Below, one piece after another: positions 3,040-32,367 of a DNA stretch of 42,235 nucleotides. Position 1 is the first letter of the stretch. Every line of letters starts with the position of its first letter. A model generated the notes under the pieces. It was given only the letters and a program-made list of their open reading frames with translations, was not told where the DNA came from and made no database searches. Both the position numbers and the translations under genes were made by a program. The stretch comes from a virus: UHGV virus genome UHGV-1993760. One strand, 5' to 3'.

Positions 3040-4688
3040 CCCCAGAATGCATCACCATCGGTCATGCGGGAACGCTGACCAAAATTAATATCTCCCAGAT
3101 TTTTCGTTACCCTGTCTGCCAGTTGTCCGGCATCCTCGCCGGGCTTCTGAGTGATGTTAAATTCCGCCCGTATCTGATACGTGGGTTTTACTTCCACCTG
3201 GCTGACACTGCCGGGGGTATACTGAAGAGCCGAGAGAGGATCCGAATTACCCTGCCCCTGAACTGCTGCAGGTAGTCCGTCAATATAGGTGCGGGATTTC
3301 TCTTTTATCGCCTTAAAATCAGGTTCTTCTTTCGGCCCCAGCAGAGGGTCGAGAAATGCATCAAACTTTTTATCGTCATGATTCCAGGGGAGATAACCGC
3401 GGGTGTCTTTATAGGCCTGTACAACCTGTTTTGTCAGGTCAGGATTTTGCCTGAGCAGTTCATCAAACCATTCACCCTGACCGTTTTTCTGCGCCACTGC
3501 TCTCGCCAGCTCCGGCGACCCCATTTTTGCCAGATACTCCAGCACTTCCCGTCGGTCCTCTCGCGGATCATCCGCCAGCCCCCACTCAATGGCTTTTTGT
3601 GTAATTCCGGCAAGAACTTTTCCAAATTTCCACATCCAGGCAGCCATGTCGATCAGCGCCGGCAGGGCATCATCACGAATAAATGCCCGGATTTTTTCCA
3701 GCCCACCATTCTTAAACCAGGCCGCAAGGTCATCCGTCACCTGTTGAATATGTGGGGCAAGTTCATTACCCAGCTGTCCGCTGATTTCATCAATGGAAGA
3801 ACTCAGAACATTACGGAGATTTGACAGTGCCACATGTCCCTGAACCGCGCCATCAGCCCCTGCCTTTGTCACCAGGTTATAGCGTTTCTGCTCACTGATA
3901 AGCTCCCGATAAGTTTTCCCTGACAGACGCATCCAGGTCAGAATTTTATTGGCCTCACCACCGAACAACGCATCAGCCATCCCCGCCGCCTGCTGCTCAT
4001 TCTCAACCTGCAGTAAGCGATCAAACAAAAATTCGACCTGCTCCTGGTTGCTTTTTCCGGCCATTACGCCCGCTTTCAGCCCCAGTTTACCGAATACCTC
4101 CTGAATGGCTCCTTTGTCCGTGGCACCATTATCATCGTCAAAAACCTTGTTCCGGTATTCCTCAAACAGATCACCGATGTTTTCACCGTTTAACCCCATC
4201 TGACGGCCCAGTGAATCCCACGCCGCATAGGTTTCATAGTCCACCCCGTAGCTCCGCGCTATCCCTGCACGCTCTGCTGTTTCCGAATTCCGGTTCAGTA
4301 CCGCACTTGCACCTGCTGCCAGCGTAAGCCCGGAACCAACCGAAAGCCCCAGCCCGGTCTTAAGAACGGTCCCGGCCCACCCTTTCCAGCGAGCCAGACG
4401 TTCCGCGCGCGCCAGCTTACGGTTAAATTTGTCCTGCTCTCCGGTGGCATCATGAATTTTTTTACCCAGCTTTTCATACTGCTTTCGCAGATCAGTAATA
4501 TCCTGTCCAGCCAGAACGCCAGCCTGAATTTTTCGTTTCAGTACGTCCTGCTGGCGTGTCAGACGAGCCACTTCCTGTGTTGCCCCTGATAATCCGTGCT
4601 TCAACCCATCAACCGATTTTTTCCACGACGGATCTATCGTGCCTCCGATCCGGATATTCGCTTTAAGGTTATCGCCCACCGTTGCCAT
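3036..4688 (-). CDS. tail tape measure protein
   Basis: 550 aa, helical/Gly-Ala-rich, directly downstream of the E/E' chaperone pair whose frameshifted product overlaps its start. Confidence 0.7.
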   Translation of the reverse strand: MATVGDNLKANIRIGGTIDPSWKKSVDGLKHGLSGATQEVARLTRQQDVLKRKIQAGVLAGQDITDLRKQYEKLGKKIHDATGEQDKFNRKLARAERLARWKGWAGTVLKTGLGLSVGSGLTLAAGASAVLNRNSETAERAGIARSYGVDYETYAAWDSLGRQMGLNGENIGDLFEEYRNKVFDDDNGATDKGAIQEVFGKLGLKAGVMAGKSNQEQVEFLFDRLLQVENEQQAAGMADALFGGEANKILTWMRLSGKTYRELISEQKRYNLVTKAGADGAVQGHVALSNLRNVLSSSIDEISGQLGNELAPHIQQVTDDLAAWFKNGGLEKIRAFIRDDALPALIDMAAWMWKFGKVLAGITQKAIEWGLADDPREDRREVLEYLAKMGSPELARAVAQKNGQGEWFDELLRQNPDLTKQVVQAYKDTRGYLPWNHDDKKFDAFLDPLLGPKEEPDFKAIKEKSRTYIDGLPAAVQGQGNSDPLSALQYTPGSVSQVEVKPTYQIRAEFNITQKPGEDAGQLADRVTKNLGDINFGQRSRMTDGDAFWG

Positions 4689-5114
4689 AACATCGCTTCC
4701 TCTCTTCCGACTCCGCCAGCATCATTGCCACAAAATCCGTATACGGCAGCGCCATCACATCTCCGGGAGACCACCCGAACCAGGCACCGGCACGCCGTAT
4801 CGCTGTCAGGATGCTTTCTTCTTCCGCCGGACCGGCGGCAGCAAAAAAACATTAAACTGACGCTCCAGGGCCAGGTAATCACACGCTTCCATGTTCATCA
4901 TGTCTGCCGCGTCCATCCCACACAGACCGGCAATCATATCCAGATCAGCCTCTGCTTCCGGTTTGTTACTCCGGCGATGCAACAGACGATCGCGGACAGT
5001 GGGCGCACGCATAGTGACGTGCGTGATCGTCTGTCCTGATGCGGTGACATACGGCACGGATAACACAATTTCCACGCTGCTGGCAGGAACACTGTTTTTT
5101 TCCGACATAAGCAT
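4669..5114 (-). CDS. tail assembly chaperone E+E' (predicted programmed -1 frameshift product)
   Basis: Minus-strand T_TTT_TTG heptamer (plus-strand A-run 4843-4849) in the zero frame of E; the -1 frame stays open for about 57 codons and stops at TAA 4671-4669, overlapping the tape-measure start, as in P2 E/E'. Confidence 0.55.
4806..5114 (-). CDS. tail assembly chaperone E (P2 gpE-like)
   Basis: 102 aa ORF between tail tube and tape measure; contains the slippery heptamer near its 3' end. Confidence 0.65.
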   Translation of the reverse strand: MLMSEKNSVPASSVEIVLSVPYVTASGQTITHVTMRAPTVRDRLLHRRSNKPEAEADLDMIAGLCGMDAADMMNMEACDYLALERQFNVFLLPPVRRKKKAS

Positions 5115-5167
5115 CTCCTTTAAAAAGAAAAGGCAGCCTGAGCTGCCTGAATGACAGGATCCCCGGA

Positions 5168-5686
5168 TTAAACCCGGATGATTTTTTTCAGATCCGCCAG
5201 AACATTAACGCCGTTAATACGACGCACAAATTCCTCCGGAATAATGCAGATGGTTTCCACACCGTCAACAGCCTGACGGTAATAACTCAGTGACATTTCC
5301 ACCGTCACCGAAGCCTCTGCCTGTGACGTTGCGGGACGCGCATCCGGCGTGATACTGGTGATCATCCCCTGCAGAGTTTCCACCTGCCCGCTGGTCGCAT
5401 TCCCCACCTGGTAAGCCTGGCGGACAACAATCTCCGGCGAATAAAGCCCGGCCTGTAATCCCAGCAGCGTAAGCATGGCAACATCATAACCATAAATCTT
5501 AAACGAACAGGTCAGCGCTTCCATGCCGTCATCCACTGCCACCGGTGCATCCATTGCGCCAGTTTTGATATCCACTGTCGTGATATTAATGGCAGGTGGC
5601 GTGTATTCATGTGCCCCCTGAAGGCGGATTCCGCCAGGAAGAAATAACGCCCATGCGCGCAACAGTTTTTTTTCACCCGTCATCAT
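5168..5686 (-). CDS. tail tube protein (P2 FII-like)
   Basis: 172 aa ORF immediately downstream of the sheath gene; size and position typical. Confidence 0.65.
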   Translation of the reverse strand: MMTGEKKLLRAWALFLPGGIRLQGAHEYTPPAINITTVDIKTGAMDAPVAVDDGMEALTCSFKIYGYDVAMLTLLGLQAGLYSPEIVVRQAYQVGNATSGQVETLQGMITSITPDARPATSQAEASVTVEMSLSYYRQAVDGVETICIIPEEFVRRINGVNVLADLKKIIRV

Positions 5687-7158
5687 ACCGTCAGTTCCTC
5701 CAGCGCCAGTTTATTGTTAATCATTGCCCGCAGTGTCAGGCGCTCCAGTGGTGACTTCGGCCCAAAGTCATAATCGATATACAACTGCCCTGCCGCCAGG
5801 GTTTCTGCAGTGTTCAGTTCATCGTTCAGCCATGCACTGCCACCGTGGATCGCGCCCAGATTTTTAAGCTGACGCATATAGGCATTAATGCTGCCAAGAA
5901 TGTCGTCTGCCACATCCCGATCAAGCGGGCGATCGACATAAGGCAGCATGGCCTCCTGGATGCTGTCCTCAATCACATCTGCAGTGCGGCGTACCGGCTC
6001 AAAACGCCACTGACTGTGGGATGTGCACAGACGGTTACCCCAGTGTTTAAAACCGTCATGGCGAATAATGGTGGAGATATTTTCCATGTTCAGCAGGTTT
6101 GCCGTGCAGTTCTGCTCCCCGAGAATAAACGTATCCACCTGCTCCAGACCGGTGATATTCATCACGTCCTGGTTTGATTTGGACCACCACCACCCTTTTT
6201 CGTAATCAATACGGGCACGCAGCCCGGCAGCACGAGCCGAATATGGACGAAATATCGTTTGCCCGCTGTCATCCGTCACTGACACGCGCGGACGCAGCAG
6301 CTCCACACGCCCACCAAATGACGCGCGCCGCTGAACCACATCCTGCGGCGTTGCCATTGAAGGCGAGTCAATATAGGCCACAGCCCGCAGCTTCACGGCA
6401 TACGTTTCCAGCGCCTTTGCCACGCCATCATCCTCACTGTACCCCGTGGCAATGAGGACGCGCGGTTGATAGCCTGTCACGCCCTTACTTTCTGTCAGCG
6501 CCTCCATGGCCTGAATCACCGCCGCACGCTGTTCGGCCTCTTTCGTCTTTGTTTTACTTTCTGCGCGCACCACAATCACCAGCGCACCAGTCTGGTCAAA
6601 AATATCTCGCAGGGCCGGGTATAATGTTCCGGCTGTGCCCAGTTTCCCTGCCTGAGTAATGGCCCCTGCCACCACCACTGGTGTATTGACCGGGAACGCC
6701 TCATCTTCTCCGCCGGATAACGTCAGGCTGAACGGCAACACCACTTTATTTTCAGCGTCTCCTGCATTCAAGGTGCTGACAGCCGCCGTCACAGGCGAAT
6801 CCCCCAGCGCATTCACCACTTCAGTCACACGGTCCGCCGTGGCGTTAACCTGGCTGTGTTCGTCCGTCCCCAGTGTTATCGTCAGGGTCGTACCTTTCAG
6901 CGAGGCCACTGTCTGCGCGTTTTGTTCTGTGGCAGCCACAGCAACAACCGAAATCTTATTACCGGCCCGACCTTCCTGTTTCGCCGTGAAATCCAGCGCC
7001 GTTCCCAGCAGCCAGGAGCCGGCTGTGCCGGAAGCGCACACACCACCAGAGGCGTCCGGCGCTGTCCCCACCAGGCCAATCACTGCCGTGGAGATGGTCT
7101 GCACGGCAACCGTGCCTGTCGTCAGTTCAATGGTTTCAACACCATGTAATCCGGGCAT
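5683..7158 (-). CDS. contractile tail sheath protein (P2 FI-like)
   Basis: 491 aa; N-terminus ...TISTAVIGLVGTA... and C-terminus ...AETLAAGQLYIDYDFGP...LERLTLR... resemble P2 FI as recalled. Confidence 0.8.
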   Translation of the reverse strand: MPGLHGVETIELTTGTVAVQTISTAVIGLVGTAPDASGGVCASGTAGSWLLGTALDFTAKQEGRAGNKISVVAVAATEQNAQTVASLKGTTLTITLGTDEHSQVNATADRVTEVVNALGDSPVTAAVSTLNAGDAENKVVLPFSLTLSGGEDEAFPVNTPVVVAGAITQAGKLGTAGTLYPALRDIFDQTGALVIVVRAESKTKTKEAEQRAAVIQAMEALTESKGVTGYQPRVLIATGYSEDDGVAKALETYAVKLRAVAYIDSPSMATPQDVVQRRASFGGRVELLRPRVSVTDDSGQTIFRPYSARAAGLRARIDYEKGWWWSKSNQDVMNITGLEQVDTFILGEQNCTANLLNMENISTIIRHDGFKHWGNRLCTSHSQWRFEPVRRTADVIEDSIQEAMLPYVDRPLDRDVADDILGSINAYMRQLKNLGAIHGGSAWLNDELNTAETLAAGQLYIDYDFGPKSPLERLTLRAMINNKLALEELTV

Positions 7159-26994: not shown

Positions 26995-27178
26995 GTCTGT
27001 AACAACCGAACTGATAATCTGCCAGACCCGCCATAACAAGCTGAGTCAGTATTAACTGGCAGCGTTCGCGTGAAAGGTAGGTATTCTGCGCAATTTCCCC
27101 GACGGTCGCCGGTTCGGTGACGCTTAATTCATTAAATACCACTCTGGCGGTTTCGGTCATATCCTGCTGTTTTAGCAT
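26981..27178 (-). CDS. small hypothetical protein
   Basis: About 65 aa from ATG 27178 (MLKQQDMTETARVVFNEL...); own terminator; divergent from the DUF262 operon. Track ORF extends further upstream into likely non-coding sequence. Confidence 0.4.
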   Translation of the reverse strand: MLKQQDMTETARVVFNELSVTEPATVGEIAQNTYLSRERCQLILTQLVMAGLADYQFGCYRRLPQ

Positions 27179-27431
27179 GTCTTTTTCCCTTTTCTGGTTA
27201 ACGTGACACACCAATAACTCTTGTCTGAAAAGCCAGCAAGCTGAAAGACCGGTATTCGCAACCACCAGCACGTTTAACGTACTGCGCCGTTTTTCGGACA
27301 CAAAAAACCGCCTGGCGGCGGGTTTAAGCTGTGTGGCGTAGTAACCACTCTTAACACGATATAATATTTTTTGCGTACGCGTTATAGTTTTCTTACAATC
27401 TATTTCCAACTCCAATTAAAGGAACAGTGAT

Positions 27432-28589
27432 ATGACCACACTCAAAGAACTCAAAGAAGAGCTTGCTCAGATTCAAGATGAAAACGCGAAAAATAGAAAA
27501 AAAGCTGAAATTGCAGCCTTGGTCACTTCTGCCGACAACGAGATTAGGCTTGCTCAGAGAAATATTGGATACAACGTACGTGAATGGACCGTTGAATTAA
27601 TTGTACAAAAGTATGGCAATAATCTTGAAACTGACAAAAACGAACTTTTTATTCCTGATTATCAACGCGATTACAAATGGGATATCAAAACAGCCTCTCG
27701 ATTCATCGAAAGTATATTATTAGATTTTCCAATCCCGTACCTCTACATCTCCGACGTATTTAATGAAGATCCTGAGTTGGATGGTCGTGTAGAAATTATT
27801 GACGGTTCACAAAGGATTCGCTCAATTTACTACTTTTGGAACAATCAGTTTGAATTGAAAGACTTAAAAGAACTCAAAAGTTTAGAGGGCTTCAAATTTT
27901 CAGATCTTTTGGCTAGCCGCCAGAGGCGATTTTTAAGGGCATCACTAAGATTTATTGAATTGAAAGGTGATGTTGAGGAGCAACATAGAAGAGATTTATT
28001 CGAAAGAATAAATTCAGGTGTTAAGAGACTGGAAGCGATGGAGGTTAGACATGGTTCAGATGCGGCCACTTCAATTTTCTATAGGGATGTTGTGACTCCT
28101 TGCTCAATAAATCCACTTTTCGCTAGTCTAGCTCCATTATCAGACCGGAAGCGTTCGAATGGCGATCATCGTGAGTTAGTTTTGAGATTTTTTGCATACT
28201 TAAATGATTTAGAAAATTATAAGGGTTATGTCGCTCCTTTTATTGACAATTATCTTAATGTTCAGGCCGAAAGGGTCACACAACAAGATGTTGACAAATT
28301 TAAACATGATTTTGAAAGCATGCTTGCTTTTGTAGATGCTCATTTCCCTATGGGGTTTAAAAAGACACCAACAAGCAAAACCACCCCCCGTGCTAGATAC
28401 GAAGCCATAGCAGTGGGAACTGCTCTTGCCTTAAAAGCCAATCCACATCTACAGGCTCCGGTTATTCCTGTAGGAGACTGGCTGTTTGGGGAGGAATTTG
28501 AAACCATAGTTACTGCTGATAGTGCCAACAACACCAGCCAACTCAAAAACAGAATATTTTATGTCAAAGATAAATTATTAGGAATGTAA
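27432..28589 (+). CDS. DUF262 (ParB/Srx-fold, GmrSD N-terminal-like) domain protein
   Basis: 385 aa; ...FIPDYQRDYKW... (aa 73-83) and ...EIIDGSQRIRS... (aa 121-131) match the DUF262 signatures as I recall them (QR.Y.W and DGQQR-like); no recognisable C-terminal HNH/DUF1524 motif; AAAGGAA RBS; AT-rich gene. Confidence 0.65.
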   Translation: MTTLKELKEELAQIQDENAKNRKKAEIAALVTSADNEIRLAQRNIGYNVREWTVELIVQKYGNNLETDKNELFIPDYQRDYKWDIKTASRFIESILLDFPIPYLYISDVFNEDPELDGRVEIIDGSQRIRSIYYFWNNQFELKDLKELKSLEGFKFSDLLASRQRRFLRASLRFIELKGDVEEQHRRDLFERINSGVKRLEAMEVRHGSDAATSIFYRDVVTPCSINPLFASLAPLSDRKRSNGDHRELVLRFFAYLNDLENYKGYVAPFIDNYLNVQAERVTQQDVDKFKHDFESMLAFVDAHFPMGFKKTPTSKTTPRARYEAIAVGTALALKANPHLQAPVIPVGDWLFGEEFETIVTADSANNTSQLKNRIFYVKDKLLGM

Positions 28590-28591
28590 CT

Positions 28592-29281
28592 ATGAGTTTG
28601 ATTGATTTAAGAGATGAATACGAAGAAAGAGCAAGAGATATTATGGAATTGCTTTCTCTTGCGTCATCTTTAGAGGCTCAGACTCAGCAGTTAGATCAGC
28701 AAACGCATAAAGATGAAATAGAATCAAATACCCTTAGGGTTAACATTTTAAAATCATCCGTGCACATGATGCTGTACAATCAGGTTGAAAACACTGCCAG
28801 AGGATGCATTGAGTCAATTTATGACCATTTGCAAGATAATGAAGTAAATTACGCATCACTCAGGGAGAAATTCCAAGTAAATATCTTGCACCGTATCATT
28901 TCAGATAATGAATCGGGAAAATCTCTTTATCAAAAAATTGGTTCCGATATATCTAAAAGGATCATTTCAGCCTCATTAAACATACGTAAAGAATTCAATG
29001 GTAATGTTTGCAAGTCTGTATTGCACAAAATAACACAAGCTTACGGAATAACTGTTGCAAACTCACCAGAGTGTAGAAATGGTGTTGACTTAGATTTACT
29101 TAAAGATATCAGAAATGAGCTGGCACATGGAAGTACCAGCTTTTCTAAAAAAGGTCAAATAGACCCTTTAGAAGAAGTCAAATCGAGGTCAGAAAGAATT
29201 GATCTATATTTGCGTTTATTAATCAACTCAACAGAAAATTATATTACCTCTAACGGGTATTTATCCCCTCAACATGTCTGA
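28592..29281 (+). CDS. HEPN-motif protein (predicted RNase-like effector), translationally coupled to the DUF262 gene
   Basis: 229 aa; ATG 2 nt after the DUF262 stop; mostly helical; C-proximal ...DIRNELAHGS... (nt 29111-29128) fits the HEPN Rx4-6H motif. Confidence 0.45.
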   Translation: MSLIDLRDEYEERARDIMELLSLASSLEAQTQQLDQQTHKDEIESNTLRVNILKSSVHMMLYNQVENTARGCIESIYDHLQDNEVNYASLREKFQVNILHRIISDNESGKSLYQKIGSDISKRIISASLNIRKEFNGNVCKSVLHKITQAYGITVANSPECRNGVDLDLLKDIRNELAHGSTSFSKKGQIDPLEEVKSRSERIDLYLRLLINSTENYITSNGYLSPQHV

Positions 29282-30290
29282 TAAATGTTTCCCCTATTAT
29301 CTGACCAATTATAGGGGGAACAGCATTTCCAATCATTGTCCCCAATTTTTGGAATGAAAAAGGCGTCTCCTTGTCAAGGAATTTATAATCCATTGGAAAG
29401 GATTGCAAAATCGCAGCTTCACGCAAAGTTATGGCGCGATTTTGCTCAGGATGGCCAAATCGTCCATTTCCATATCCATAACACTGGGTAGTTATCGTAG
29501 GGCTAGTATCGTCCCAAACCATCCGTCCATAAACGCTTTTATAGGTAGCACCTGAATTCTTTTTATGACAGTCTGCTCTAATTTCTTCAGGCCAGTCATC
29601 CCACGTACCACCAGGTAAAGAATGCATGATTCGTTTAAGATTGATATCCATCAATTTAGGCGAACGATGCAAGGGATCGCTTTCCAGCTTCTCACCTGCC
29701 CCTACTTTTGGCAACCTACCAATAGCATCCTTAACAGTAACTTTACGGCTAACTTTTTTTTGATCAAGGCTGATCGGCCCCAATTGGGAACCAATTAGAA
29801 TTAATCTACGTCTATTTTGAGGTAAGCCATACTCAGAACATCTTACAACGTCGTACCACAAATGATATCCAAGAGTCTTTAATGCACTAACAAACCCTTC
29901 AAAAACCTTATGGTTTCTAAGTTGAGGAACATTCTCCATCGTCACAAGCTCTGGCATGACATCACTTACAAGCCTTTGAAACTCATATAACAAACGCCAC
30001 TTTGTATCGTCTTTACGGCTATTTGGATTACGATACTTGGAAAACGGTTGGCAAGGAGCACATCCAGCAAGCAATCTAATATTTCCTTCCTTGAACATAG
30101 CAGACACATCGCAGGATTGCAGTTCTGTAACTGACTGATTAATGAACTGCGTTAAAGGATTATTGCTCTCAATAGCAAAACGGCAGGATTCATCAATATC
30201 AATACCATGAGAAACCTCAATCCCGGCTTTTTTTAGCCCAAAAGTTAAGCCCCCCGCACCACAAAAAATGTCTACTGCCTGAATGTTCAC
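29250..30290 (-). CDS. DNA (cytosine-5)-methyltransferase
   Basis: 346 aa; motif I DIFCGAGG, motif IV GCAPCQPFS, ENV, QNRRR, C-terminal GNAVPP; GTG start with GGAG 6 nt upstream; 3' end overlaps the convergent HEPN gene by about 32 bp. Confidence 0.9.
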   Translation of the reverse strand: MNIQAVDIFCGAGGLTFGLKKAGIEVSHGIDIDESCRFAIESNNPLTQFINQSVTELQSCDVSAMFKEGNIRLLAGCAPCQPFSKYRNPNSRKDDTKWRLLYEFQRLVSDVMPELVTMENVPQLRNHKVFEGFVSALKTLGYHLWYDVVRCSEYGLPQNRRRLILIGSQLGPISLDQKKVSRKVTVKDAIGRLPKVGAGEKLESDPLHRSPKLMDINLKRIMHSLPGGTWDDWPEEIRADCHKKNSGATYKSVYGRMVWDDTSPTITTQCYGYGNGRFGHPEQNRAITLREAAILQSFPMDYKFLDKETPFSFQKLGTMIGNAVPPIIGQIIGETFIRHVEGINTR

Positions 30291-30353
30291 AAGATTCTCC
30301 GTTACTTTATCCTGGTATTATATACACATAAAAGTTGGGAAAGTAGAACGATT

Positions 30354-30722
30354 TTACATAGAACTTAAGTCATTGTAGTAAATGAAAAATGACAAGCAGC
30401 CATCAATAAACCCCATTGCTGTTTGCATCTCTTTCCGTATTGTTCCATCTGAACATTTCCGTTTTTTAGCAATAGCGCGTAATGAGATACCAATAACAAA
30501 GTGAGCAATGATCAACTCATACTCTTCGGGTTTATACTTTCGCAACCGAGCCACACAACCGTCTATCATGATACCTTCGTCATCATCACACTGGAGACGT
30601 GACTTTTTACCGTGTGGTAAAAGCCCCTTGAAGCCTGCTGCTATCGGCTGCCAGTCCACACCACTGTTATCTGCTGCAGCCCAGGCCCCCCAACGATCTA
30701 AAACTTCGTACATATCACGCAT
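30354..30722 (-). CDS. late antiterminator Q-like protein
   Basis: Internal ATG at 30722 with GGAGG upstream; MRDMYEVLDRWGAWAA...AAGFKGL...CDDDEG...CSDG... resembles lambdoid Q (phage 82 / QuuD type) as recalled. Confidence 0.7.
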   Translation of the reverse strand: MRDMYEVLDRWGAWAAADNSGVDWQPIAAGFKGLLPHGKKSRLQCDDDEGIMIDGCVARLRKYKPEEYELIIAHFVIGISLRAIAKKRKCSDGTIRKEMQTAMGFIDGCLSFFIYYNDLSSM

Positions 30723-30979
30723 CAGCGCAGTACCTCCTGCACCAGTTTTTCGAACTTTCCAACTTTGGTTTCCAGCTCTGCCACACAATCCACCAGCTCA
30801 TCCACTGCTTTTTGTGCGCGGTGTTTCGCCTGCATCAGTTCCCTGAGCGCTGGCACCATATCCTTACGAATGGCATCTTTTGTTACGCCTGTCTTTTCCA
30901 GTTGTTCCGCCTGTCGTAACATTTCCTGTGCCTGTTTACGTAATTGTTCAGGCGTAAAAGTCATGGTCTGGTTGTTCAA
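30722..30979 (-). CDS. small hypothetical coiled-coil protein
   Basis: 85 aa ORF between helicase and Q; stop overlaps the Q start (TGATG). Confidence 0.4.
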   Translation of the reverse strand: MNNQTMTFTPEQLRKQAQEMLRQAEQLEKTGVTKDAIRKDMVPALRELMQAKHRAQKAVDELVDCVAELETKVGKFEKLVQEVLR

Positions 30980-32367
30980 AAGAAACGCTCCATCTTACTG
31001 CTGTCGGTTCGCTTATTGCTGTATCTGCGCGGCTGGGGCTGCTGCATTGGGGTGGAAAGAATCTGTGCGCTTTCCTGGTCTACGGGCAGAAAATGTCCGT
31101 TATAAAAACGCCGGTAAATCGTCCCCAGAGAACCGTTACGTTGTTTCGTGATATTGATTTCTGCAATGCCTCTGGCCTGCGTATCCGGGTTGTACACTTC
31201 ATCCCTGTAAAGCATCAGAATGATGTCTGCATCCGCCTCTATTTCTCCGGAATTTTTCAGGTCTGAGTTCATAGGGCGTTTATTGGGCCTGGACTCCACA
31301 CCACGGGAAAGCTGGCTCAGCGCAATCAACGGAAAACCACCGGATTTTGCCAGGCCTTTAAGCCCCTTTGAGATTTCACCCACGGCAAGGTCATGACGCC
31401 CCGTGGTTCGGGTTTTTATCAGCCCGAGATAATCAACCACCACCAGCGCCGTTTCCGGATGTTTAATCAGGTGATGTTTCGTTGTTGCGCATATCTCATC
31501 AATGGTCAGGTTCGCCTGGTCCACCATCCAGATATTGCGCCCGGTCATCCGCCCCACTCCTTGTGAGAAACGTGCCCAGTCTTCGTCTTCAAAGTGAGTG
31601 ACAGATTTCAGGCGTGATACCGGCATTCCTCCAGCCGCAGATACCATGCGTTCACCAATCTGGATGTTCGCCATTTCCATTGTGAACAGAAGAACACCAT
31701 GCCCCTGCTCAGTCACCTTGTCGATGATATCCAGCGCCAGTTCGGTTTTGCCCATCGAAGGACGTGCAGCAATAAATACCAGGTCGCCAGGCTCCATGCC
31801 GCCCGTTTTTGCGTCCAGTTCATCAATACCGGTCATCAACGTCCTGGATTTCTCCAGCCCCTGATTCCGGCATTCAACACGCTCAACCACTTCCGGAAGC
31901 ACATCATCAATATGTACCGGCTGAATAACGCCCTTTTCCGTCGACAATGAGGCCATCATGTTCTGCGCATCCTTCAGAGCATCTTCAGCTGCTTCACAGG
32001 TATGCGCATCACGTAATTTCTGCAGCGCCTCATTCAGTGTTTTTTCTGCATCACGCAATGCGGCATTACGCCGCAACGCCGTAACATAGTGCTCCAGTGA
32101 CGACTTCACCCAGGTTTTGCGCCCGGTATCAGTAATCACCGGGGCAAGTTCCGGCATCTCATTACACAACAGCACAGGGTCAATCACGCCTGAAACACGG
32201 GCCTGTCGGCAGATGCCTGTGTAGATATCCCGATACGCTCGTACAGAAAAAACGTCTGCCGGCAATGTGGCCAGAATATCCATCACTTCATGATCTGCCC
32301 CTCGCAGAAAAAACGCGCCAATGACAGCGCCTTCCAGGTCATCGTTACGCCAGACAGGAGAAGTCAT
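30976..32367 (-). CDS. replicative DNA helicase (DnaB family)
   Basis: ATG at 32367 (ATGA overlap with the loader gene); Walker A ...ARPSMGKTELALD...; DnaB-like C-terminal RecA fold pattern. Confidence 0.85.
   Translation of the reverse strand: MTSPVWRNDDLEGAVIGAFFLRGADHEVMDILATLPADVFSVRAYRDIYTGICRQARVSGVIDPVLLCNEMPELAPVITDTGRKTWVKSSLEHYVTALRRNAALRDAEKTLNEALQKLRDAHTCEAAEDALKDAQNMMASLSTEKGVIQPVHIDDVLPEVVERVECRNQGLEKSRTLMTGIDELDAKTGGMEPGDLVFIAARPSMGKTELALDIIDKVTEQGHGVLLFTMEMANIQIGERMVSAAGGMPVSRLKSVTHFEDEDWARFSQGVGRMTGRNIWMVDQANLTIDEICATTKHHLIKHPETALVVVDYLGLIKTRTTGRHDLAVGEISKGLKGLAKSGGFPLIALSQLSRGVESRPNKRPMNSDLKNSGEIEADADIILMLYRDEVYNPDTQARGIAEINITKQRNGSLGTIYRRFYNGHFLPVDQESAQILSTPMQQPQPRRYSNKRTDSSKMERFF

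Follow-up and report, generated by a model that had tools for sequence, protein, structure and literature searches.

The stretch of DNA analyzed here, the 42,235-nucleotide virus genome UHGV-1993760 (referred to below as the window), is an Escherichia coli lambdoid prophage. Its region 27000-31000 is 99.4% identical to the chromosomes of sequence type 131 (ST131)-type and other strains, in which the prophage adjoins a DUF72 gene next to yecN-cmoA. We focused on a cassette of three genes found in this region. A gene for a DUF262/ParB-like nucleoside triphosphatase (NTPase) protein of 385 amino acids (27432-28589, plus strand; Pfam GmrSD_N, E value 1.1e-25) is followed by a gene for a 229-residue HEPN protein of the MAE_28990 family (28592-29281, plus strand; PF18737, E value 3.8e-16, and PF18735, E value 6.7e-8). 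Facing this pair on the minus strand is a gene for a C5 cytosine DNA methyltransferase (29250-30290; 346 amino acids, GTG start; Pfam PF00145), and the convergent 3' ends of the HEPN and methyltransferase genes overlap by 32 bp (29250-29281). The gene for antiterminator Q (30354-30722, minus strand; 122 amino acids; PF06530, E value 5.8e-47) is the upstream neighbor of the methyltransferase gene and lies outside the module. RefSeq annotation of 99.9% identical E. coli chromosomes contains the same three genes with identical ends. The G+C content of the cassette is 38.5%, compared with 49.9% for the whole window, and the cassette is thus foreign cargo; in this lambdoid prophage, the low-G+C module occupies the slot that separates Q from the late promoter.

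An earlier note on this DNA had described the methyltransferase as an orphan and its juxtaposition with a DUF262 protein as unusual. Our comparative data indicate instead that the enzyme is part of a conserved, mobile three-gene module and is not an orphan: it is linked to the DUF262-HEPN pair in 28 of 47 assessable clusters of HEPN loci, in approximately 60 of the 80 best-matching viral contigs and in all 107 E. coli genomes that have any part of the cassette.

Judging from its sequence, the methyltransferase gene is intact and real. The protein matched the Pfam DNA_methylase family PF00145 with an E value of 9.5e-54 over profile positions 2-322 of 324, and TIGR00675 (dcm) with 121 bits. It is full length and contains motifs I, IV, VI, VIII, IX and X of C5 methyltransferases: FCGAGG (residues 9-14), PCQ with the catalytic Cys (79-81), ENV (119-121), QNRRR (158-162), REAAILQSFP (290-299) and GNAVPP (321-326). 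The enzyme reported earlier, with its FCGAGG, PCQ, ENV and QNRRR motifs, could thus be located in full, and the GTG start, the GGAG sequence, the 63-bp gap with TATAAT and the 32-bp overlap with the HEPN gene that were described with it were all confirmed. Its specificity was not revealed by matches to proteins of known structure in PDB (DNMT1, 3g7u and M.HaeIII), which cover mainly the catalytic (N-terminal or C-terminal) parts and not the target-recognition region. Searches by accession and in the methylome literature for its motif gave nothing usable; a methylome paper on ST131 contained no 5-methylcytosine assay and its strain lacks this methylase. The methylases found to be essential by transposon sequencing in Pectobacteriaceae have no bearing on this enzyme; they belong to ordinary MvaI and SmaI systems.

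The catalytic motifs are intact in all three module proteins. In the DUF262 protein the NTPase motifs QR (Q78-R79), DGSQR (D124-R128) and FERIN (F190-x3-N194) are invariant. Its best PADLOC matches were NsnA (E value 1.7e-45) and PD-T4-2_A (E value 1.3e-26). In an AlphaFold model, with a predicted local distance difference test (pLDDT) score of 84, a ParB-like core lies between an N-terminal helix and a C-terminal domain made up entirely of helices; neither this model nor the Pfam scan revealed a DUF1524 His-Me nuclease domain. Fold searches with the model gave only weak matches to ParB, BrxU and SspE (E values of about 1e-2), which we take as consistency alone. The helical domain of NsnA that corresponds to the C-terminal part of the window protein was predicted to bind DNA in an analysis of the Menshen system (PMC12065111). 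We propose the DUF262 protein as the DNA sensor of the module.

The HEPN protein contains the R-N-x3-H motif at residues 174-179 (29111-29128), in which R174, N175 and H179 are invariant; the invariant RNELAH agrees with the conserved Rx4-6H of the MAE_28990 family. When searched against PADLOC, it gave only a marginal, partial match to RTasHEPN (E value 0.0078, 14.4 bits), and no match to the PD-T4-2_B model was detected even at E values up to 10. Its structure model was poor (pLDDT 62), and neither HEPN nor DUF262 had significant sequence relatives among solved structures. HEPN is the only predicted nuclease of the module and is our proposed effector. As the earlier note had stated, no classical restriction endonuclease was recognized nearby when the adjacent open reading frames (ORFs) were scanned with Pfam and PADLOC; only DUF262 and HEPN were detected.

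To analyze the linkage of the three genes, we collected 123 HEPN loci from metagenomes, viral contigs and genomes and grouped them into 61 clusters at 80% HEPN identity, 47 of which had enough flanking sequence to assess the methylase. (A scan of species-representative genomes had yielded a single locus with patterns too specific to Enterobacterales, and was replaced by metagenome and viral scans built on a broader alignment.) In 56 of the 61 clusters, DUF262 immediately preceded HEPN; the remaining five were loci cut close to HEPN, had a wider gap or, in one case, had no DUF262 match. A methylase of a single clade was present in 28 of the 47 clusters, convergent in 26 and upstream in the same direction in two, and was absent from the other 19. 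The order DUF262, HEPN, convergent C5 methylase recurs in Gamma- and Alphaproteobacteria and on different mobile elements. It was found as cargo of a Tn7-like transposon in Pseudoalteromonas (HEPN 41% identical), between Q and holin in a lambdoid prophage of Yersinia mollaretii, in a decayed prophage of Salmonella bongori, in a Bradyrhizobium metagenome-assembled genome (HEPN 25% identical), in a P2-like prophage of Vibrio fluvialis, in integrase islands and insertion sequence islands, and on plasmids of Klebsiella pneumoniae and Roseomonas mucosa. Identity between the window proteins and these relatives ranged from 69 to 23% for HEPN, from 82 to 42% for DUF262 and from 80 to 50% for the methylase. 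All module methylases belong to a single clade, in which the target-recognition region is conserved and identity to the window enzyme remains 50-80% even at a HEPN identity of 23%; those of the Bradyrhizobium, Vibrio and Pseudoalteromonas modules are at least 50% identical to the window enzyme.

The convergent arrangement with overlapping gene ends is conserved among the modules. The HEPN and methylase stop regions overlap by 4-68 bp in 18 of 26 non-redundant modules, and are separated by less than 25 bp in six more. Among 5,426 complete E. coli genomes, 107 have any part of the cassette and every one of these has all of it. Two alleles occur in this species, at 99.9% and about 87% identity; the second is intact inside an otherwise decaying prophage.

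We also carried out the reverse test, starting from the methylase. In the best 80 viral contigs by methylase similarity (at least 52% identity), HEPN and DUF262 were located beside the clade methylase in about 60. We inspected 12 viral loci that contain the clade methylase and lack the pair, and most of them have an ORF of about 650 codons alongside, often convergent and with overlapping ends. Eight such ORFs were scanned: six encode GHKL (HATPase_c_3) ATPases, one a NERD-helicase and one a ribonucleotide reductase. The GHKL ATPase genes are at 4538-6496 in locus L163, 4739-7030 in L165, 3041-5032 in L180, 4529-6535 in L202, 4983-7109 in L206 and 2008-3969 in L208. The methylases in these GHKL pairs are 52-58% identical to the window enzyme and the ATPases are paraMORC-like; the partner in L183 is a NERD-UvrD helicase. 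Exchangeable neighbors of one methylase clade are the behavior expected of a modification subunit with swappable effector modules.

How the methylase gene is transcribed bears on its role, and we examined the sequences at both ends of the cassette. The gap between Q and the methylase gene (30291-30353, minus strand, next to the Q stop codon at 30354-30356) is 63 bp long and contains TATAAT (30322-30317) and GGAG (30300-30297), the latter 6 nucleotides 5' of the GTG start. The element TGTATATAATAnCAGG upstream of the methylase gene is kept in the cassettes of E. coli, Enterobacter, Klebsiella, S. bongori and Yersinia. We detected neither a good -35 element nor a terminator-like site in the gap, and a second -10-like sequence, TAAAGT, is present 3' of TATAAT. 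TATAAT and GGAG probably represent the methylase's own promoter and ribosome-binding site; TATAAT is best read in this way, as it accompanies the methylase even in S. bongori, whose Q is decayed. Downstream, a terminator-like hairpin with a 9-bp stem and a weak T run (29118-29141, minus strand) is located approximately 110 nucleotides past the methylase stop codon, within the HEPN gene. The plus strand of the same stretch carries the codons of the catalytic RNELAHG motif, and the hairpin may be a coincidence or may mark the end of methylase transcripts.

The late regulatory block of the prophage was found on the other side of the cassette, at 27300-27410 on the minus strand. It comprises a candidate pR'/qut, a leader hairpin and an intrinsic terminator (stem-loop 27321-27308), and is colinear with the annotated pR', qut and terminator of phage 933W (AF125520). 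Both this terminator and the invariant TGTTAAGAGTGGTTAC...GCCAC hairpin are common to the two blocks; the terminator-like site was also detected in our scan, and a fold of the block was predicted. The segment 5' of the invariant TGTTAAGAGTGG differs between Q alleles, which is what one would expect of a Q-binding site and promoter. There are two candidates for the pR' hexamers, TTGGAA-17 bp-TATAAC and an equivalent of the 933W annotation that ends in TATCGT. These comparisons place the late promoter beyond the cassette, firing away from it: with the block on the far side, Q-dependent late transcription runs away from the three genes, and the methylase gene could be entered only by transcripts of the early operon that read through Q. 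After induction, such read-through would increase expression of the methylase and continue, antisense, into HEPN and DUF262, and heavy use of pR' could occlude the DUF262 promoter. The convergent overlap described in the earlier note is real and conserved (18 of 26 modules), but the antisense interference from Q-dependent late transcription suggested there is not supported.

The candidate promoter of the DUF262-HEPN pair (27371-27399, plus strand) consists of TTGCGT and TACAAT separated by 17 bp, and overlaps the late promoter region on the opposite strand; we infer its start near 27406, as we do the other transcription starts, near 30310 for the methylase and at 27350-27375 for pR'. Both hexamers are kept upstream of DUF262 in enterobacterial cassettes. 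A consensus promoter scan gave no excess over the shuffled expectation, and the promoter assignments therefore rest on conservation and homology. A perfect palindrome, GCGTACGC, is present at 27373-27380, where the late promoter region meets the cassette, and is contained in both candidate promoters. It is kept in nearly all aligned cassette-bearing loci and in strain 3-72, whose Q is 89% identical in DNA over the aligned part, and could be a Q-binding element or an operator.

Other phages have different genes at this position. In phage Stx2_EH2201, which is free of the cassette, the late block begins a few bases past the Q stop codon. Between Q and the late block, phiP27 has a GIY-YIG gene, strain 52F4 has a DUF4236 gene, and strain 3-72 and phage 569R4 have a convergent cassette of two genes. 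This cassette and the Q stop codon overlap in strain 3-72, where no space remains for a promoter. The slot between Q and the late promoter (approximately 27385-30353) appears from these comparisons to be a cargo hot spot in lambdoid and Shiga toxin (Stx) phages. The slot loci compared were L008, L009, L010, L132 and L213. The last 12 or so residues and the 3' end of the window Q allele were found only in cassette-bearing prophages, and a search for empty sites, in which the joined cassette flanks were compared with E. coli genomes, never found this allele without the cassette; the insertion borders were therefore taken from more distant relatives. It should be noted that the mechanical ORF of Q (30354-30788) begins with TTG and has 144 codons, whereas RefSeq and all homologs use an ATG 22 codons downstream.

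Based on the observed gene integrity, catalytic motifs, co-inheritance, convergent layout and position relative to the late promoter, we propose that the cassette is a restriction-modification-like module, with the methylase labeling self DNA, the DUF262 NTPase as the reader of DNA and HEPN acting as effector. We assign this reading a probability of roughly 60%. In a lysogen, the methylase would be expressed from its own conserved promoter, and after induction probably also by read-through via Q. It would place 5-methylcytosine on a putative motif in host and prophage DNA, which the DUF262 protein would read. As to the direction of the methylation signal and the HEPN substrate, we infer that DNA lacking the mark would switch DUF262 on and that HEPN would then act, most likely on RNA, leading to translation arrest or abortive infection. 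A more specific form of this proposal can be advanced only tentatively. It is restriction-modification without DNA restriction: the NTPase would couple the C5-methylation state to a HEPN ribonuclease (RNase), an unmethylated invader would trigger cleavage of tRNA, rRNA or mRNA and abortive infection, and the methylase clade would serve as an exchangeable self-marker for DUF262-HEPN pairs, GHKL ATPases and the NERD-helicase.

Several observations weigh against a restriction-modification-like module. The 19 of 47 assessable DUF262-HEPN clusters that have no clade methylase nearby are flanked mostly by housekeeping genes and keep the HEPN RNxxxH motif and the DUF262 QR, DGxQR and FxxxN motifs; the pair is thus not obligatorily lethal without an adjacent methylase. 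The characterized DUF262 proteins GmrSD, BrxU and SspE respond to modified, not unmodified, DNA, and PD-T4-2, a related system of two genes, protects E. coli in the absence of a methylase. In addition, no DNA endonuclease domain, as classical restriction would require, was recognizable in the module proteins by Pfam, PADLOC or the DUF262 model. In a crude neighbor-joining tree, the methylase-less clusters fall mostly into one nested group, which may represent a domesticated or differently triggered version of the system. Examples of such pairs with intact motifs and housekeeping flanks include the metagenome loci L026, L030, L034, L049 and L052.

Alternatively, the methylase could license the defence, as modification does for SspE: self 5-methylcytosine would activate or position the DUF262 NTPase, HEPN would hit the invader, and loss of the methylase would mean loss of defence, not self-toxicity. 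The linkage evidence is the same for this arrangement, known DUF262 sensors read modified DNA, and in SspABCD-SspE the DUF262 domain senses host phosphorothioate, which stimulates its NTPase and nicking (PMC10952713, PMC12065111). It is also compatible with viable pairs that lack a methylase. We consider it unlikely, however, as the clade methylase is also located beside unrelated GHKL ATPases, which looks more like generic self-marking, and the intact cassette in a decayed prophage fits addiction slightly better. The earlier note had left open whether the enzyme is self-protective, an anti-restriction moron or functionally linked to the DUF262 pair; of these, the comparative data favor the functional link. 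The two parts could still be independent neighbors, that is, a solitary phage methylase acting against host restriction and a self-contained PD-T4-2-like pair, which both happened to be carried in the slot after Q. Cargo of this slot is indeed varied (GIY-YIG, DUF4236 and two-gene cassettes), 40% of the pairs have no methylase, about 20% of the clade methylases in viral contigs have no pair, and PD-T4-2 works without one. But the trio is not confined to lambdoid phages: a Tn7-like element, a P2-like prophage, plasmids and integrase islands have it as well, with a fixed orientation, overlapping gene ends and methylases that all belong to one clade, and in E. coli it is present either completely or not at all. 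Chance neighborhood thus seems improbable.

Least likely, in our assessment, is that TATAAT after Q is the Q-dependent late promoter, with the methylase as the first late gene and antisense silencing of HEPN and DUF262 upon induction. In phage 933W the annotated pR' is indeed at the 3' end of Q, and in the window TATAAT is perfect and conserved, is followed by the -10-like TAAAGT and is not separated from Q by a terminator in the gap. However, the block homologous to the 933W pR'-qut-terminator is beyond the cassette, at 27300-27410. The same block directly follows Q in the cassette-free relative, and in strain 3-72, where the Q stop codon overlaps convergent cargo, it is again found after the cargo. 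Moreover, TATAAT lacks a usable -35 element and remains with the methylase in S. bongori despite the decayed Q.

The combination of these genes has a precedent. An operon type comprising MAE_28990 HEPN, ParB (DUF262) and DNA methylase is given in Table 1 of Anantharaman et al. (2013, Biol Direct 8:15, PMC3710099), and DUF262 is coupled to modification in SspABCD-SspE as well, so that the juxtaposition noted earlier is not as unusual as it had seemed. Anantharaman et al. predicted that HEPN proteins linked to restriction-modification genes form a second, RNA-directed line of defence (PMC3710099). The window shares the three protein families of this operon type in one neighborhood, including the HEPN Rx4-6H motif and the adjacent DUF262 and methylase genes. 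The type occupies one table row in that study, without gene order, experiments or an E. coli prophage example; our data add that the layout is fixed, convergent and overlapping, that the methylases form a single clade and that one subclade lacks them. In the literature searched, this was the only paper that named the family, and no experimental study of the trio turned up.

We compared the module with characterized systems. PD-T4-2 is a validated two-gene anti-T4 system of DUF262 and HEPN (PF18735) from E. coli ECOR65 (Vassallo et al. 2022). The gene order, DUF262 then HEPN, is the same, and the window DUF262 protein matches PD-T4-2_A (E value 1.3e-26), but the PADLOC model has two genes, no methylase was described, the window HEPN matches none of the PD-T4-2 models and DUF262 scores better against NsnA. 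In Menshen, NsnA has the same ParB-DUF262 core followed by a helical domain and is the best PADLOC match of the window protein, and Menshen loci sometimes adjoin solitary methylases (PMC12065111). However, neither the NsnB ABC ATPase nor the NsnC effector was detected by PADLOC and Pfam among the adjacent ORFs scanned, and HEPN directly follows DUF262. The window protein resembles the DUF262 proteins of SspABCD-SspE, GmrSD and BrxU in its QR, DGxQR and FxxxN motifs and in the helical domain downstream, and Ssp also couples a DUF262 sensor to a system that modifies self DNA. It differs from GmrSD, BrxU and SspE in the lack of a DUF1524 His-Me domain, in the separate HEPN effector and in the use of C5 methylation rather than phosphorothioation. 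Thus, the window module, which is not a member of PD-T4-2, Menshen or the GmrSD/SspE group, is a new member of a predicted, uncharacterized operon type.

Type II restriction-modification systems with convergent genes occur, and the window methylase is likewise tightly linked and convergent to a putative toxic partner on mobile elements. Here, however, no endonuclease fold (PD-(D/E)xK, HNH, GIY-YIG or PLD) was recognizable, and protection by methylation is putative. PrrC of PrrC-EcoprrI is a HEPN RNase restrained by a restriction-modification system; the HEPN protein of the window differs from it in being small and stand-alone, without an ABC ATPase. In pairs of paraMORC/GHKL proteins with C5 methylases, a methylase of the same clade (52-58% identity) is found with an ATPase in the place of DUF262-HEPN; this effector module is a different one and is absent from the window.

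Several features of the neighboring late region are worth describing. Rfam detected only tRNAs near the cassette. These form an array of four genes (25795-26104, minus strand) for a tRNA with a CAT anticodon, tRNA-Lys (TTT), tRNA-Thr (TGT) and tRNA-Gly (TCC); the first was assigned to Met, and RefSeq relatives label it tRNA-Ile. Some HEPN defence nucleases cleave tRNA-Lys, and phage tRNAs replace the cleaved ones. By analogy, the tRNA-Lys gene of the prophage beside a HEPN module is suggestive of a possible connection to such cleavage. The tRNA array is separated from the late promoter block by a gene for an AraC-family helix-turn-helix regulator (26131-26844, minus strand). In 682 E. coli genomes, at least 80% of the segment from 25700 to approximately 27372 is covered, following differing Q alleles and differing cargo. 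Two relatives (L001, 19373-19831, and L129, 4402-5454) have a second gene for a DNA methyltransferase in their late operon, 3' of a small TrmB-like ORF, as in Stx phages. This second gene is intact in strain AR437, and in Ecol_AZ146 it is truncated and followed by a DUF6645 pseudogene. At this position the window has the AraC-like gene and the tRNAs instead.

The module is widespread and was listed as early as 2013, and there is no PADLOC model for its HEPN protein. Its hosts are clinically relevant: it is found in E. coli prophages, including those of ST131, and related cassettes are present in Klebsiella, Enterobacter, Serratia, Yersinia and Vibrio. Because it occurs in E. coli prophages, the module is directly testable in E. 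coli. In lambdoid and Stx phages, defence cargo appears to accumulate between Q and the late promoter. If the proposed restriction-modification-like reading is true, the DUF262 sensor would read plain 5-methylcytosine as a self mark, and DNA methylation gating an RNase would be a new logic of self and non-self recognition. Many C5 methylases of prophages that are regarded as orphans may be mislabeled partners of non-canonical effectors.

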